From the IMG/VR virus record IMGVR_UViG_2541047827_000012: a DNA stretch of 39,749 bases. The stretch is one strand, 5' to 3'. The first letter of the stretch is position 1. Each line of letters opens with the position of its first letter. Origin of the DNA: a virus. Its lineage: Duplodnaviria; Heunggongvirae; Uroviricota; Caudoviricetes. Shown one piece after another: positions 6,982 to 34,614 of the stretch. The position numbers were made by a program, and so were the translations under genes. A model generated the notes under the pieces. The model was not told the origin of the DNA, ran no database searches, and was given only the letters and a program-made list of their open reading frames with translations.

Positions 6982-7248
6982 ATTTACATCGCACTCCTCT
7001 TGTGCCATAGTAATCGGGCACTGGCAAAATCCAGTGCCGGGATTGGCGTCCCGAGTTACTACAGAGGCACATATGCCGCATAAGCGGTTTTTTTTATGTG
7101 TAAAGCGCACCTATTCTATGGTGGGCTGTGTGGGGGCACCGAAAGGTGCGCCGGGTCCTTTGTAGCCGGTTACGCCAACCCTGCACAGTTCACCACCAAC
7201 CGATTGGCGTCGGTAGTGGTGATTAACCTAACTACAAAGGTGATCACT

Positions 7249-7935
7249 ATGACTGCTAACGTAACCCCATCTGTTTTTCATTTTGAATCAGAAGCAACCA
7301 TTCGAGCCATTGTTATTGATGGAAATCCTTGGTTTGTTGCCAAAGACGTTATTAAAGCTCTTCAACTGACAAACCCCACTATGTCAATAAAATCTCTTGA
7401 TGATGATGAAAGGGCTAAATTTAACTTAGGCCGTCAAGGCGAAACCAATATTATCAACGAGTCAGGCCTCTACACACTGATCCTCCGCTGCCGCGATGCA
7501 GTAACACCAGGCACTATCCCCTACCGCTTTCGCAAATGGGTTACAGGTGAGGTTCTTCCTCAGATCCGCCGCACCGGAAGTTACATTAAAAACTCGCTCC
7601 CGCAGGAAGAACGCATAAAGATGGTTGCCGACCAGGTTGCAAACGCCACAGCATCAGCAGTGATGCAGGCAATGAAGATAGAGAACAAAACCTACAGCGC
7701 CCCACTGAAGCCCGGCTACCGCAGCCTGATTCATTCGCCGTCTGGTGTTCTCGGCCTGACGGAGAACTCACTGCTGATGAATTTGCTGAACCAGTTACAG
7801 GAAGACGGGCATGACGTATCGGGCGCGGCGGCGGAGCTGACTACCATGTTCTGCTACATCGTCGGTGTGAGCAAATGCCTGCGTGATATCCAGACGCACG
7901 CGGAGTACATCAACGACAAGGCAGGGTTCTTCTGA
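7249..7935 (+). CDS. Antirepressor (Bro-N domain plus KilA-C-like C-terminal domain)
   Basis: SD AAAGGTGA before ATG 7249; Bro-N pattern FHFESEATIRAIVIDGNPWFVAKDVIKALQL...ESGLYTLILRCRDAVTPGTIPYRFRKWVTGEVLPQIRRTGSYI. Confidence 0.8.
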   Translation: MTANVTPSVFHFESEATIRAIVIDGNPWFVAKDVIKALQLTNPTMSIKSLDDDERAKFNLGRQGETNIINESGLYTLILRCRDAVTPGTIPYRFRKWVTGEVLPQIRRTGSYIKNSLPQEERIKMVADQVANATASAVMQAMKIENKTYSAPLKPGYRSLIHSPSGVLGLTENSLLMNLLNQLQEDGHDVSGAAAELTTMFCYIVGVSKCLRDIQTHAEYINDKAGFF

Positions 7936-26308: not shown

Positions 26309-26385
26309 GTGGCATTAGCTCAGTTGGACAGAGCAACCGCCTTCTAAGCGGTTGGTCGCAGGTTCGAATCCTGCATGCCACGCCA
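26309..26385 (+). tRNA. tRNA-Arg (anticodon TCT, reads AGA)
   Basis: Cloverleaf folded by hand: acceptor GTGGCAT/ATGCCAC, D-arm GCTC-AGTTGGACA-GAGC, anticodon stem ACCGC/GCGGT with loop CTTCTAA, T-arm GCAGG-TTCGAAT-CCTGC, discriminator G plus CCA. Confidence 0.9.
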
Positions 26386-31242: not shown

Positions 31243-31587
31243 TCAGAACTCTTCGATGTTCCAGCCACCACCTGCTTTCTTTGGTTTAACCGTTACCCCG
31301 ATGATTCGGAACGGATACTGATCTGCGGCGACTTTGGTTTTCACCCTGGCGTCGTCGGTCCAGAAACCTTTCACTTCGTGCAGTTCCATCTCGCCGGTGA
31401 CGAGCATCACAGCGAAATCGGGCGTATAGAACGTGTTGTCAGCTAACCGCAGCTTGATACCCTCGAATCGATACCAGGCGATTTCCCCTGCACGTTTACG
31501 CTGCTCAAGGTGCTGGCAATACGCAGATTCTGTTTTGTTCATCTGGCCTGTTTTGAGTCGACCAAGAGCCTGTATCTGTTTTCTCAT
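31243..31587 (-). CDS. Putative PD-(D/E)XK-fold nuclease (114 aa)
   Basis: Motif YTPDFAVMLVTGEMELHEVKG resembles the D...E-x-K nuclease core; SD GAGG lies within the palindromic site at 31591-31605. Confidence 0.45.
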   Translation of the reverse strand: MRKQIQALGRLKTGQMNKTESAYCQHLEQRKRAGEIAWYRFEGIKLRLADNTFYTPDFAVMLVTGEMELHEVKGFWTDDARVKTKVAADQYPFRIIGVTVKPKKAGGGWNIEEF

Positions 31588-31704: not shown

Positions 31705-32505
31705 TTACTTGATAAATCCTGCCGCCTTTCCCCGCCTGTATTCCTCCATCAGCCACTGCGCCGGTGTTATTCCCCCAAGGGTGGCGGCGTTAGGCATGCA
31801 CCCGAAACTTCGCCCTGGCGGGTGGTAAACGTCTCTCCCTGTGTCCGGAGGTGTACTCATGGGTTCTGGCTTTGCCTGTATGCTGATCACCGGATCGGGT
31901 ATCTGCTGTCCGGAAGCCACCTTTTTCGCCCAATCATCGAGCAGCCTGCGCGCGTGTTTCTCAACCTCAATCTCGCTAAGCTGGCGCTGATACATTGCAC
32001 GGCGGGTATCACATACGACCCAGTACATAACCGGATGTCGCCACGGGAATCTTTCGGGACCGCCAGGATATAAACTTTTTTCCTTGCTGTACCGGTGAAA
32101 CTCCGCCATCACATCGTCAATGGTGACGCCAAGAACCATCTTGCTGTCTTTGCACCACTTGATGAATTGCCCTGGCGACGGCCAGAACGGAGATTCACTG
32201 GCGCGGGCGTGGCGCATACCAGCAGAAACCTGTTCACGGGTTCGGATCCCCCCTTCGGCAAACGCAGCAATCCACTGCTGTTTTGCAGCAACTTCCTGCT
32301 CTGGCGTCTTCAGGTTGGTTACCACTGCCGCCGGAAACAGTTGTTTCAGCTGTTTAAAAAGGGCATCAACAAGCCTCTCTGCTGACATGTTCACCACATT
32401 GTCATTGTTGACGTATTGATGCTCATAACCTGACATGCGAGAAAGGGCTTCTCCGTCACGGTTTTGTATCGCGGTAAAAACGTTGTTCACAAGAAATCCT
32501 CCCAT
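31705..32505 (-). CDS. Replication protein P-like (DnaB helicase loader)
   Basis: Central region ...QQWIAAFAEGGIRTREQVSAGMRHARASESPFWPSPGQFIKWCKD... closely parallels lambda P as I recall it. Confidence 0.75.
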   Translation of the reverse strand: MGGFLVNNVFTAIQNRDGEALSRMSGYEHQYVNNDNVVNMSAERLVDALFKQLKQLFPAAVVTNLKTPEQEVAAKQQWIAAFAEGGIRTREQVSAGMRHARASESPFWPSPGQFIKWCKDSKMVLGVTIDDVMAEFHRYSKEKSLYPGGPERFPWRHPVMYWVVCDTRRAMYQRQLSEIEVEKHARRLLDDWAKKVASGQQIPDPVISIQAKPEPMSTPPDTGRDVYHPPGRSFGCMPNAATLGGITPAQWLMEEYRRGKAAGFIK

Positions 32506-33278
32506 GCTTCAGGGCTGTTCCAGTGCGGAACGTTGTTATCAGGTAATGTTGATTGCTTCTGTCTGCTAATCTGCAGCCGCCTTGCCAGCTTCTGCTCCCA
32601 CTGTGCCTGATGGTATGCCTTACCCTCAGCCATCCAGTAAATTCTGAACTCTGCAAGTTCCTGTGCCGTTGGCAGACTGTCCAGGTAGATCCCCTGCAAT
32701 GAGCTTTTCCGAAGAAAGTCATCTGATGGCTGCCATTGTTCATGCATGACAAATTTGCCTAATTGCCCTGGCCCACCAGGAGGAACAAAGTTATTCATCA
32801 CGGCGTTGTTTGCGCCGGGGTCATGAGGCACAGAATCCCCGCTTTTTGTCCTGCTCTCCCTCTCTTGGTTAAATGACTGGTTATATGACTGGTTCTGGAT
32901 CCCGTTTTTGGGATCATTCAACATCCCGTTTTTGGGTATATTCCCTTTTTCGGTAACATTACCGTTTTCGGGTTCATTGCCCCCCTCTCGGTTGCCTTTA
33001 ATGTTCCCGTTTTTGGTTATATTAAGAGAGAAAACCCGCACTCTTTTTGTCGCTCCCTTTCTCTCCCCGGTATCTGAAATAAGCCCCATTTTCATGAGCG
33101 ATATAAGTCCGGCCTGCACGGTTTTTTTATTCAGGCAAGTGTCTTTAACGAGGCGTTCTATGCTGGGGTAGCAGAGGTTATATTCATCGGCTCTGTCAGC
33201 CATCGAGAGCAGTATGAGCTTTAATGACGAGCTACCTGGATCTGTCTCCCAGGCCCAATCTGTTGCATGTCTGCTCAT
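32487..33278 (-). CDS. Replication initiator (lambda O-like / DnaD-like HTH), contains the origin
   Basis: N-terminal HTH-like segment, low-complexity Asn/Gly/Lys linker encoded by iteron DNA, conserved C-terminal domain; overlaps P-like gene start. Confidence 0.65.
   Translation of the reverse strand: MSRHATDWAWETDPGSSSLKLILLSMADRADEYNLCYPSIERLVKDTCLNKKTVQAGLISLMKMGLISDTGERKGATKRVRVFSLNITKNGNIKGNREGGNEPENGNVTEKGNIPKNGMLNDPKNGIQNQSYNQSFNQERESRTKSGDSVPHDPGANNAVMNNFVPPGGPGQLGKFVMHEQWQPSDDFLRKSSLQGIYLDSLPTAQELAEFRIYWMAEGKAYHQAQWEQKLARRLQISRQKQSTLPDNNVPHWNSPEAWEDFL
32866..33020. repeat. Putative replication origin: five iteron-like repeats (CCCGTTTTTGG) plus tandem ATGACTGGTT repeats
   Basis: Iteron cores at 32901-32911, 32925-32935, 32943-32953 (CCCTTTTTCGG), 32961-32971 (ACCGTTTTCGG), 33006-33016; tandem ATGACTGGTT at 32873-32882 and 32885-32894; all inside the O-like linker region as in lambda ori. 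Confidence 0.6.
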
Positions 33279-33593: not shown

Positions 33594-33622
33594 AGATATG
33601 AAAAGACCGCCGGGTGGCGGTC
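33594..33622 (-). terminator. Rho-independent terminator after the Cro-like gene (tR1-like position)
   Basis: GACCGCC-ggg? hairpin (GACCGCC/GGCGGTC at 33605-33622) followed on the minus strand by TTTTCAT. Confidence 0.5.
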
Positions 33623-33644
33623 TACAGAGGGTTGTAGCTGGATA

Positions 33645-33875
33645 TCATGAGTAGAAGAAGTATGCCAGTTCTGCTTTTGAGCGCAGCCATTGTCTTGTTT
33701 TACAGGCTTTAAAAAGCCCATTCATCAATACTTTACCTGGCATTTTGCGCTTACCTGTTAAGTGAGTCTGGATATAGTGACTCGTCGTTCCGGCTTCCTG
33801 TGCGAAGGCTTCACGCTCATCCGGAGTAAGTGCAAGCCAGTGCTTTTTGAAATCGAAATGTCCGTTATCGCTCAT
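33645..33875 (-). CDS. Cro-like HTH regulator (YdaS/Cro family)
   Basis: 76 aa; ...EREAFAQEAGTTSHYIQTHLTGKRKMPGK... parallels the lambda Cro HTH; divergent from the repressor gene across a three-operator region. Confidence 0.6.
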   Translation of the reverse strand: MSDNGHFDFKKHWLALTPDEREAFAQEAGTTSHYIQTHLTGKRKMPGKVLMNGLFKACKTRQWLRSKAELAYFFYS

Positions 33876-33911
33876 AGCTATTGCCTGATATTTATTTCAG
33901 ATAATAAATAT

Positions 33912-33974
33912 TCACCCATAAGGTAACAAAAATCAAGGATAGTTACCTATGAGGTGCATTTACCTGTTGGGTAA
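33912..33974. promoter_or_regulatory. Three clustered operator sites between the Cro-like and repressor genes (OR-like)
   Basis: 33912-33926 tCACC-N5-GGTAA, 33943-33957 TTACC-N5-GGTgc, 33960-33974 TTACC-N5-GGTAA; centre spacings 31 and 17 bp. Confidence 0.6.
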
Positions 33975-34029: not shown

Positions 34030-34614
34030 ATGAAAAGTATCCAGGACGTCCGCAGGCAAAATCTCAACGACTTGATCGACCGTGAATTCAATGGTGTTCA
34101 GACGCGGATGGCAGAAAAACTTGGAACTCAGGCAAATCTGGTAAACCGCTGGGCTCTTGGCAAGAAGGTTATCGGCGACCAGGTTGCACGAAAAATTGAA
34201 GCTGCCGCCAATAAACCCCGTAACTGGCTTGATATTGATCGCTCGCTTTCTCAGGAGGGTTTTCAGCCTGTCGGCCCGAGCGATATAGGTCAGCTGGCGG
34301 CTCACAACCTGGAACGCTGGATGAGCGAAAGCCGCGACCTTTCAACGCAGGGAAAACTACACCGCGCATCCGGCGTCGCCCAGGTGACAATCAGCCGCCT
34401 GTTAAACAATGAGGTCAGCGTTTCCATTTCCACCCTGGAGAATGTTGCATCCGCATTCGGGCGTCACGGCTATGAATTACTGATTCACCCGCACGACCCT
34501 GCGACCATCAACTATGATCGCTCGCGCTACGCATTGTTACCCGAAACCGAGAAAGCAAAGATCGAAAGTTACATTGAATTTGTCATCAACCAGAACGAAA
34601 AAAACAAACAATAA
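34030..34614 (+). CDS. Prophage repressor, double-HTH, no S24 peptidase domain (CI-like position)
   Basis: 194 aa with two HTH-like segments; no Ala-Gly cleavage site or Ser/Lys peptidase motifs seen; flanked by operator clusters; followed by a terminator. Confidence 0.65.
   Translation: MKSIQDVRRQNLNDLIDREFNGVQTRMAEKLGTQANLVNRWALGKKVIGDQVARKIEAAANKPRNWLDIDRSLSQEGFQPVGPSDIGQLAAHNLERWMSESRDLSTQGKLHRASGVAQVTISRLLNNEVSVSISTLENVASAFGRHGYELLIHPHDPATINYDRSRYALLPETEKAKIESYIEFVINQNEKNKQ

Follow-up and report, generated by a model that had tools for sequence, protein, structure and literature searches.

A probable lambda-type replication origin, formed by iterons conserved as DNA, inside the initiator gene of a phiV10-like Escherichia coli prophage

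Arrays of direct repeats, or iterons, lying within the gene of a phage replication initiator are known from lambda and from several other phages. In the lambda record, the part coding for the Phage_rep_O domain (aa 22-115) of the initiator O is immediately followed by four annotated iterons, and these by an AT-rich tract. Gene 18 of phage L contains six imprecise repeats of the 11-bp TGTCCAACGGA, proposed as an origin from sequence alone, and gene 18 of P22 harbours four repeats of about 20 bp (PMC8022706). Stx phages possess six iterons compared with four in lambda, the two extra ones lengthening O by 13 residues (PMC7466680). Inferring an origin from repeats within an initiator gene is established practice. 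Here, we describe such an array in IMG/VR record IMGVR_UViG_2541047827_000012, a stretch of 39,749 nt referred to as the window, which is a phiV10-type Uetakevirus prophage of E. coli, in keeping with the podovirus-type prophage named in a preliminary description of this DNA. Its nearest phage records are phiV10, phiv142-3 and PAS61, Uetakevirus podoviruses of about 39 kb sharing 94-97% identity with it. The array is located in the linker-coding part of the replication initiator gene and is probably the origin of replication of this phiV10-like prophage, arranged as in lambda. The repeats exist, are conserved as DNA, co-occur with the N-terminal domain of the initiator (hereafter N-domain), and stand in the same gene order as in lambda.

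In the region 32866-33024, a repeat finder returned a 21-nt unit present five times on the + strand, at 32899, 32923, 32941, 32959 and 33004 (first positions), with start-to-start spacings of 24, 18, 18 and 45 nt. The five direct repeats with an 11-bp core of the preliminary description were thus recovered, and the spacing of 18-24 bp given there holds for three of the intervals but not for the 45-nt gap, inside which a decayed copy is found at about 32980-33000. The exact 11-mer CCCGTTTTTGG occurs three times in the window, always within the array (32901, 32925 and 33006), compared with 0.03 ± 0.17 copies in shuffles, none of which (0 of 100) reached three copies; two more copies, at 32943 and 32961, carry two mismatches each. 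In the coding order of the initiator gene, on the - strand, iteron 1 (TAACCAAAAACGGGAA, 33004-33019) has the exact 11-mer core and is followed by the decayed iteron-like spacer (32980-33000), which fits a spacing of 21 + 24 nt and in which the variable sites of close relatives cluster. Then come iterons 2 (AACCCGAAAACGGTAA, 32959-32974) and 3 (TTACCGAAAAAGGGAA, 32941-32956), both delineated by the repeat finder, iteron 4 (TACCCAAAAACGGGAT, 32923-32938), delineated by the repeat finder and by the exact 11-mer count against shuffles, and iteron 5 (32898-32915), which reads GATCCC-AAAAAC-GGGATC with full dyad symmetry and is the sole copy with a stable single-stranded hairpin (-9.4 kcal/mol). The five copies and the decayed one correspond to aa 87-128 of the initiator, directly after its winged helix-turn-helix domain (aa 1-86). 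Together with a second element made of 12-mers, they all fall within the open reading frame 32487-33278 on the - strand, at aa 87-138, between the HTH_36 and DnaT-like domains.

The initiator gene (32487-33278, - strand) codes for a protein of 263 residues composed, according to Pfam, PHROGs and AlphaFold2, of an N-terminal winged helix, a disordered linker, and a DnaT-like C-terminal domain. Pfam matches were obtained with HTH_36 at aa 18-67 (1.7e-10) and with the DnaT DNA-binding domain PF17948 at aa 176-244 (1.1e-15), and the whole protein belongs to phrog_1032, 'replication initiation protein' (1.9e-102). The region coding for aa 1-86 (33021-33278, - strand), delimited with AlphaFold2, Foldseek and PHROGs, presumably specifies the iteron-binding domain, and that coding for aa 176-244 (32547-32753, - strand) a presumed recruitment or single-stranded DNA (ssDNA)-binding module. 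In the AlphaFold2 model, for which the alignment drew on a profile protein search with the N-domain that returned mainly truncated sequences, uninformative on domain architecture, aa 1-89 form a confident winged helix (pLDDT 89-98, topology H-H-H-H-E-E), and pLDDT stays under 50 over aa 97-200. Both the iterons (aa 87-128) and the 12-mers (aa 128-138) thus belong to the part coding for a linker that is predicted to be disordered, where little constraint is to be expected at the protein level, and the placement of the repeats in the linker by the preliminary description is borne out.

With regard to the relationship with lambda O, the N-terminal regions of both proteins match phrog_678 (6.9e-13 for the initiator and 1.7e-35 for lambda O) and phrog_345 (1.9e-8 and 5.2e-17, respectively) over overlapping profile positions, both profiles being annotated 'replication initiation O-like'. 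A Foldseek search against viral models (BFVD) retrieved phage replication and O-like proteins, including 'replication protein O' (2.8e-9) and 'GpO N-terminal' (1.1e-5). However, the window protein has no match to Pfam Phage_rep_O (PF04492) at E <= 1, compared with 5.7e-36 for lambda O; BLASTP between the two is not significant, and a fold search in the PDB gave generic winged-helix matches only, none at E <= 0.001. The protein was accordingly rejected as a Phage_rep_O member or direct homologue of lambda O, the links being transitive ones through PHROG profiles and fold. The label 'O-like' used in the preliminary description is justified in the sense of a remote homology, through shared profiles and fold, together with the same architecture, but not as family membership, and the C-terminal domain is DnaT-like. 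Identification as DnaT was also rejected. The C-terminal 70-85 residues do match the DNA-binding domain of E. coli DnaT, but the N-terminal two thirds are unrelated to it, and the protein scores 85.1 bits compared with an equivalog cutoff of 201 for NCBIfam NF002770, with an alignment limited to aa 173-256. The database names 'primosomal protein I' and 'primosomal protein DnaT' carried by this phage gene are over-annotations.

The locus resembles lambda ori in several respects. The array lies inside the initiator gene, directly after the part coding for the N-terminal winged helix; the iterons are 16-19 bp long, contain an A-tract, look alike (ATCCCTCAAAACGAGGGA in lambda and GATCCCAAAAACGGGATC in the window) and are dyad-symmetric, though in the window only in part; and they are spaced by about two helical turns (20/24/23 nt in lambda, 18/18/24 nt in the window). 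The gene immediately downstream encodes a helicase loader of the lambda P family (31705-32505, - strand) and overlaps the initiator stop codon; it matches Pfam Phage_lambda_P (1.5e-56) and phrog_109, 'P-like helicase loader' (4.7e-92), in accordance with the preliminary description, as is the mirroring of the lambda layout. In both phages, the module belongs to an early operon, behind a cro-like gene and a terminator. The differences lie in the N-domain, which is of the HTH_36 and not of the Phage_rep_O type, in half-sites about 3 bp closer together, in a DnaT-like C-terminal domain in place of the P-binding domain of lambda O, and in the presence of a tandem 12-mer box and a moderately AT-rich flank where lambda has a 40-bp AT-rich tract.

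The arrays of P22, phage L and Stx phages are of the same in-gene kind, but differ in iteron sequence and initiator subfamily, and in L and P22 the initiator is paired with a DnaB-type helicase (gp12) rather than with a P-type loader. A more distant parallel is offered by staphylococcal RepA_N and Rep_3 iteron plasmids, in which a winged-helix initiator binds direct repeats, those of RepA_N plasmids being located within rep itself. The initiator resembles the N-terminal domains of RepA (4pql, 5kbj and 4pt7) weakly in fold (Foldseek E of about 0.01-0.03), which reflects generic winged-helix similarity. The initiator has no Pfam Rep_3 or RepA_N match, and the context of the window is that of a phage early operon with a P-type loader.

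The evidence that the repeats matter as DNA comes from homologues. The N-domain alone (35-47% identity) is common to the initiators of E. coli PPompW, Vibrio H20, Edwardsiella GF-2 and Acinetobacter AP22, and in all four CCCAAAAACGG-type repeats follow right after it. In PPompW, GF-2 and H20, one and the same word is read in two frames within a single gene, giving for instance PKNG as opposed to TQKR or DPKT. The analysis was extended to 80 loci from one-genome-per-species contigs, covering more than 25 genera, with N-domains 41-87% identical. Exact CCCAAAAACGG was found 71 times in the 300 nt following the N-domain, in 29 loci from 20 genera, compared with six copies in 419 kb of flanking sequence with both strands counted, corresponding to an enrichment of about 200-fold, and the sense orientation prevails over the antisense one by 71 to 1. 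The three reading frames are used by 48, 20 and 3 of the exact copies, and by 80, 34 and 24 copies when up to one mismatch is allowed, with at least two frames used in 24 loci. The peptides resulting from the shared word are unrelated, namely, PKNG, T/SQKR (QKR) and VPKTE (PKT), and among 123 representatives of clusters at 50% identity, 75 have linker peptides from at least two of the three frames. The exact 11-mer is kept across 20 genera, but the surrounding linker peptide is not. Since one nucleotide word gives rise to three unrelated peptides, a peptide repeat cannot explain the array, and the repeats have almost certainly been selected as DNA.

Next to the last iteron stands the second element. 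In the window, Tandem Repeats Finder detected a repeat of period 12 with 2.4 copies at 32866-32894; this 12-mer box (AACCAGTCATAT / AACCAGTCATTT / AACCA; 32866-32895, - strand) contains ATGACTGGTT twice, at 32873 and 32885, where 0.08 occurrences are expected, and corresponds to the adjacent tandem pair seen previously. It represents the window form of a tandem element, GAAYCNNYCA, of which 70 of 80 diverse loci have two or three copies immediately behind the last iteron. The copies are spaced by 12 nt (36 cases) or 13 nt (10 cases), are read in two frames, and often have an A-rich run next to them. Family-average AT content shows a modest peak of 0.60-0.67 just after the array. In the window, the box and its downstream flank are 60-62% AT, at about the 90th percentile of duplex instability, and lack the A-run. 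The box is a candidate unwinding or second binding element, and constitutes the weakest link of the origin model.

Initiator binding, unwinding, loader recruitment, origin firing and theta-mode initiation can be pictured by analogy with lambda O, P and ori. The winged helix of the N-domain, acting as dimers, would bind the five iterons of 16-18 bp, with their CC-AAAAAC-GG core and partly dyad-symmetric arms (32898-33019), and dimers seated on these phased, A-tract-containing sites would assemble into an O-some-like nucleoprotein complex. Such a complex would strain or open the adjacent 12-mer box and moderately AT-rich stretch (32866-32895), and early rightward-type transcription of the - strand, crossing the site, may aid opening. 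The C-terminal part of the initiator would then recruit the lambda-P-type loader encoded by the next gene, the loader would deliver host DnaB, and bidirectional theta replication would follow.

Several observations weigh against an origin at this site. All five iterons of the window share one frame, so that the frame argument depends on homologues, and a clear palindrome is seen in one or two of the five copies only. No striking AT-rich unwinding element is present, the array flanks being 60-68% AT and at the 90th-95th percentile of instability over 40 nt; when an unwinding element was sought by thermodynamic stability, the 40-mers of lowest stability proved to lie elsewhere in the window (25900, 8992 and others), and not at the array. 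GC skew was discarded as origin evidence, as its cumulative minimum at about 32-34 kb coincides with the switch in transcription direction and is uninformative. Finally, the literature searched contains no experiments on binding or replication in any member of this initiator family, and full-text searches retrieved no description of this origin, PMC6118388, which deals with iterons of IncX1 plasmids, being irrelevant.

Among the alternatives to an origin, the one that survives best holds that the repeats function as DNA or RNA in another capacity, as autoregulatory operators, as sites for other phage or host factors, or as mRNA or ssDNA hairpins affecting translation or processing. It bears on the symmetry of the iterons, in which CC-AAAAAC-GG is invariant and three or four bases on either side differ by lineage yet tend to remain complementary, as in GATCCC..GGGATC, AGTCCC..GGGACT, ACCCCC..GGGGGT and AGTACC..GGTACT. 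Over 133 distinct sites, the arms pair in 69% of cells compared with 63.4 ± 1.0 in shuffles, the observed value being reached by none of 500, and the covariation score is 0.178 compared with 0.110 in shuffles and at most 0.110 in slid controls. This covariation agrees with a dimer that recognises its sites symmetrically, as lambda O does, but could also fit hairpins, since it is likewise expected of a conserved hairpin. In the window, symmetry is restricted to iteron 5 (6-bp arms) and iteron 4 (3-bp arms). Single-strand folding of iteron 5 is significant (z = -3.6), and the 146-nt array stretch folds better than all shuffles (z = -3.6). Moreover, iterons also serve some initiators, plasmid Rep proteins among them, in autoregulation and in the control of copy number. 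However, the other four copies fold at -1 to -3.8 kcal/mol, inside the shuffle range, and a hairpin reading of the iterons was rejected with significant folding in one of five. Because four of the five copies are without a significant hairpin and the best-conserved bases, CC-AAAAAC-GG, include the would-be loop, recognition of the duplex is favoured. In addition, the strict linkage to the DNA-binding domain of a replication initiator, the position of the array and the downstream 12-mer/A-rich element match known origins, and autoregulation is compatible with origin function. We consider a role other than that of an origin improbable, though it deserves to be kept in mind. As a side remark, the first residue of the recognition helix (R/K as opposed to E/I/V) gave the by-eye impression, with no control for phylogeny, of varying with an arm base (T as opposed to C), and no claim is made for it.

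Far less credible is the view that the repeats are a by-product of a low-complexity peptide linker, made of N-x-P-K-N-G units, selected as protein and devoid of any role as DNA. The window taken by itself would agree with it: its five copies, all in frame, encode similar hexa- or octapeptides in the form of N-x-P/T-K/E-N/K-G units, their spacing is in multiples of three, and the repeat region is a disordered linker. In homologues, however, the same word yields the three unrelated peptides given above, the exact 11-mer outlives the linker peptide around it across genera, and strand bias and enrichment are those of a nucleotide word. An explanation of the repeats solely by constraint on the protein, which the preliminary description had itself named as fatal to its proposal, is rejected by the use of three frames. 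The recurrence of frame-shifted copies in independent genera makes errors of sequencing or annotation an unlikely source of them. The explanation by protein selection is thus largely refuted.

The array also varies in length. Among 80 IMG/VR relatives with an N-domain 99-100% identical to that of the window, it measures 159-255 nt and changes in steps of 12, 18 or 24 nt, that is, by whole units; 183 nt is the commonest length, and the window carries the short 159-nt allele. Cluster lengths in the protein database show similar stepping. In close relatives, nucleotide diversity (pi) in the iteron cores, 0.010, is about half that of the other array positions, 0.021, the decayed spacer being the most variable part; the sample is small, and this difference between core and non-core positions is supportive only. 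The extra iterons of Stx phages parallel this whole-unit polymorphism of the phiV10-type array. That the array is a neutral, slippage-prone minisatellite, carried without function in a tolerant linker, would account for the wide whole-unit length polymorphism among near-identical phages, but is hardly tenable given that the same 11-nt word is kept across Acinetobacter, Vibrio, Pseudoalteromonas and Enterobacterales at 41-87% protein identity, that cores are less variable than spacers, and that lambdoid origins likewise differ in iteron number (PMC7466680). In Escherichia phage YDC107_2 (locus L005, 1790-2160), the T5 runs of several iterons read T6, and other single-base indels are present; its initiator annotation is broken into several pieces, one of them a spurious 'membrane protein' on the opposite strand, and the likely cause lies in homopolymer sequencing errors within the iterons.

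Returning to the array as a probable origin, its repeats travel with the N-domain rather than with the remainder of the protein. HTH_36 was found in all 72 complete homologues, whose C-terminal domains are DnaT-like in six, Phg_2220_C in five, DnaA_N in two, and mostly none recognised. Of 61 loci, 15 have a lambda-P-like gene next to that of the initiator, and in the others the following gene codes for DnaB, an IstB/DnaC-like protein, AAA_25 or an unrelated product. In GF-2 (locus L008, 1501-2343), the family N-domain and iterons are joined, right after the 12-mer/AT region, to a lambda-O-type C-terminus (phrog_277 and phrog_2357), followed by a P gene, and this joint marks a recombination point between the origin-binding and recruitment modules. 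Conversely, Tyrion, SPN1S and TL-2011b, which have only the DnaT-like C-terminus in common with the initiator, are devoid of such repeats. Such a pattern of co-occurrence is what a DNA-binding domain and its cognate sites should show if they move as one module.

Going one step further, we can tentatively propose that the N-domain, the CCCAAAAACGG iterons and the GAAYCNNYCA 12/13-mer box form a portable origin cassette, which in Gammaproteobacteria and beyond has been recombined with a variety of C-terminal recruitment domains and of partner helicases or loaders, that initiators of co-resident prophages might cross-bind each other's origins, and that the 12/13-mer box could belong to a class of unwinding or ssDNA-capture elements not yet described; taken jointly, these suggestions are speculative and more doubtful than the origin assignment itself. 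E. coli records carry the near-invariant iteron core in two kinds of elements, phiV10-type and PPompW/Qin-type prophages, whose N-domains are about 49% identical. If cross-binding did occur, trans-activation of cryptic prophages, or replication interference or incompatibility, could result.

Matches in the plasmid collection are mostly prophage-like regions on large replicons. One circular E. coli 'plasmid' of 8,461 bp (NZ_CP148379.1, 1-8461) consists only of a Qin/PPompW-type prophage segment with genes for an HTH repressor, Cro/CI, YdaT, an initiator homologous in its N-domain, replication protein P, HokD and Rem, and no other annotated replication gene; it may be a natural lambda-dv-like mini-replicon or an assembly artefact, and is at most a hint of replication dependent on the initiator and P. 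Two records of 41,027 bp from duck E. coli (NZ_CP079771.1 and NZ_CP079768.1), deposited as non-mobilizable plasmids, have an N-domain 100% identical to that of the window, and apparently represent a phiV10-like genome captured as an extrachromosomal circle. In the record of 'Escherichia phage BP9' (PP488543.1), a 138-kb lytic, rV5-like Vequintavirus, a 99%-identical copy of the temperate repressor-initiator-P segment is present near the end (133437-137228), which suggests a chimeric assembly or prophage contamination, and the unannotated 115-kb 'phage PH444' is similar.

As regards the genomic setting, 424 of 5,426 complete E. coli genomes carry the initiator gene, nearly always on the chromosome. 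Genes in the window are ordered as repressor, cro-like gene, terminator, small open reading frame, initiator and P, on the - strand with the repressor divergent. The early operon is headed by the gene of a small cro-like regulator (33645-33875, - strand; phrog_35 transcriptional repressor, 5.6e-13), separated from the replication genes by a terminator-like hairpin (33604-33623, - strand), which matches a position annotated in phiV10 as a putative rho-independent terminator. A promoter-like site (33901-33929, - strand; 9 of 12 consensus matches) lying upstream of this regulator gene is a candidate early promoter from which a transcript would cross the origin, the number of such sites in the region being not above that in shuffles. 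The divergent repressor gene (34030-34614, + strand) codes for an HTH_3 protein according to Pfam and is annotated as a repressor in phiV10 and phiv142-3. This gene order fits transcription through the origin from an early promoter, the promoter-like site being a consensus match only. The gene after the P-like loader (31243-31587, - strand) encodes a DUF1064 protein (Pfam, 5.6e-07; phrog_190 'Holliday junction resolvase'), which also follows the replication genes in SPN1S-type relatives without a P gene.

Elsewhere in the window, Rfam matches at gathering level were obtained on the + strand for isrK (7018-7094, 74 bits) and C4 antisense RNA (7114-7200, 79.5 bits), located at the start of a 279-residue open reading frame (7096-7935, +), a layout that recalls the C4-icd-ant antirepressor immunity region of P1/P7. 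A full-length match to the STnc490 family of Hfq-binding small RNAs (146 bits, cutoff 56) lies at 1687-1810 on the - strand, and a tRNA-Arg gene with anticodon TCT (26309-26385, +) is carried inside the prophage.

The locus is a further, well-supported example of the textbook lambda arrangement, and as such will not surprise a specialist of phage replication. It nevertheless provides coordinates for the probable origin of phiV10/Uetakevirus prophages, and, for a large family of initiators comprising 567 clusters at 50% identity (E <= 1e-10), defines both a family-wide iteron, CCCAAAAACGG, and a second element of 12/13-mers. It corrects annotations as 'primosomal protein DnaT', and explains the length variation of the gene as well as its frequent splitting or truncation in assemblies. 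A defined target is also made available for the construction of mini-replicons or the blocking of prophage replication, which would be useful for the engineering of phiV10-type phages. In more general terms, the array is a clear case of overlapping constraint, in which a DNA-binding site, readable in any frame, shapes the coding sequence that contains it, and by which the lambda paradigm is extended, not changed.

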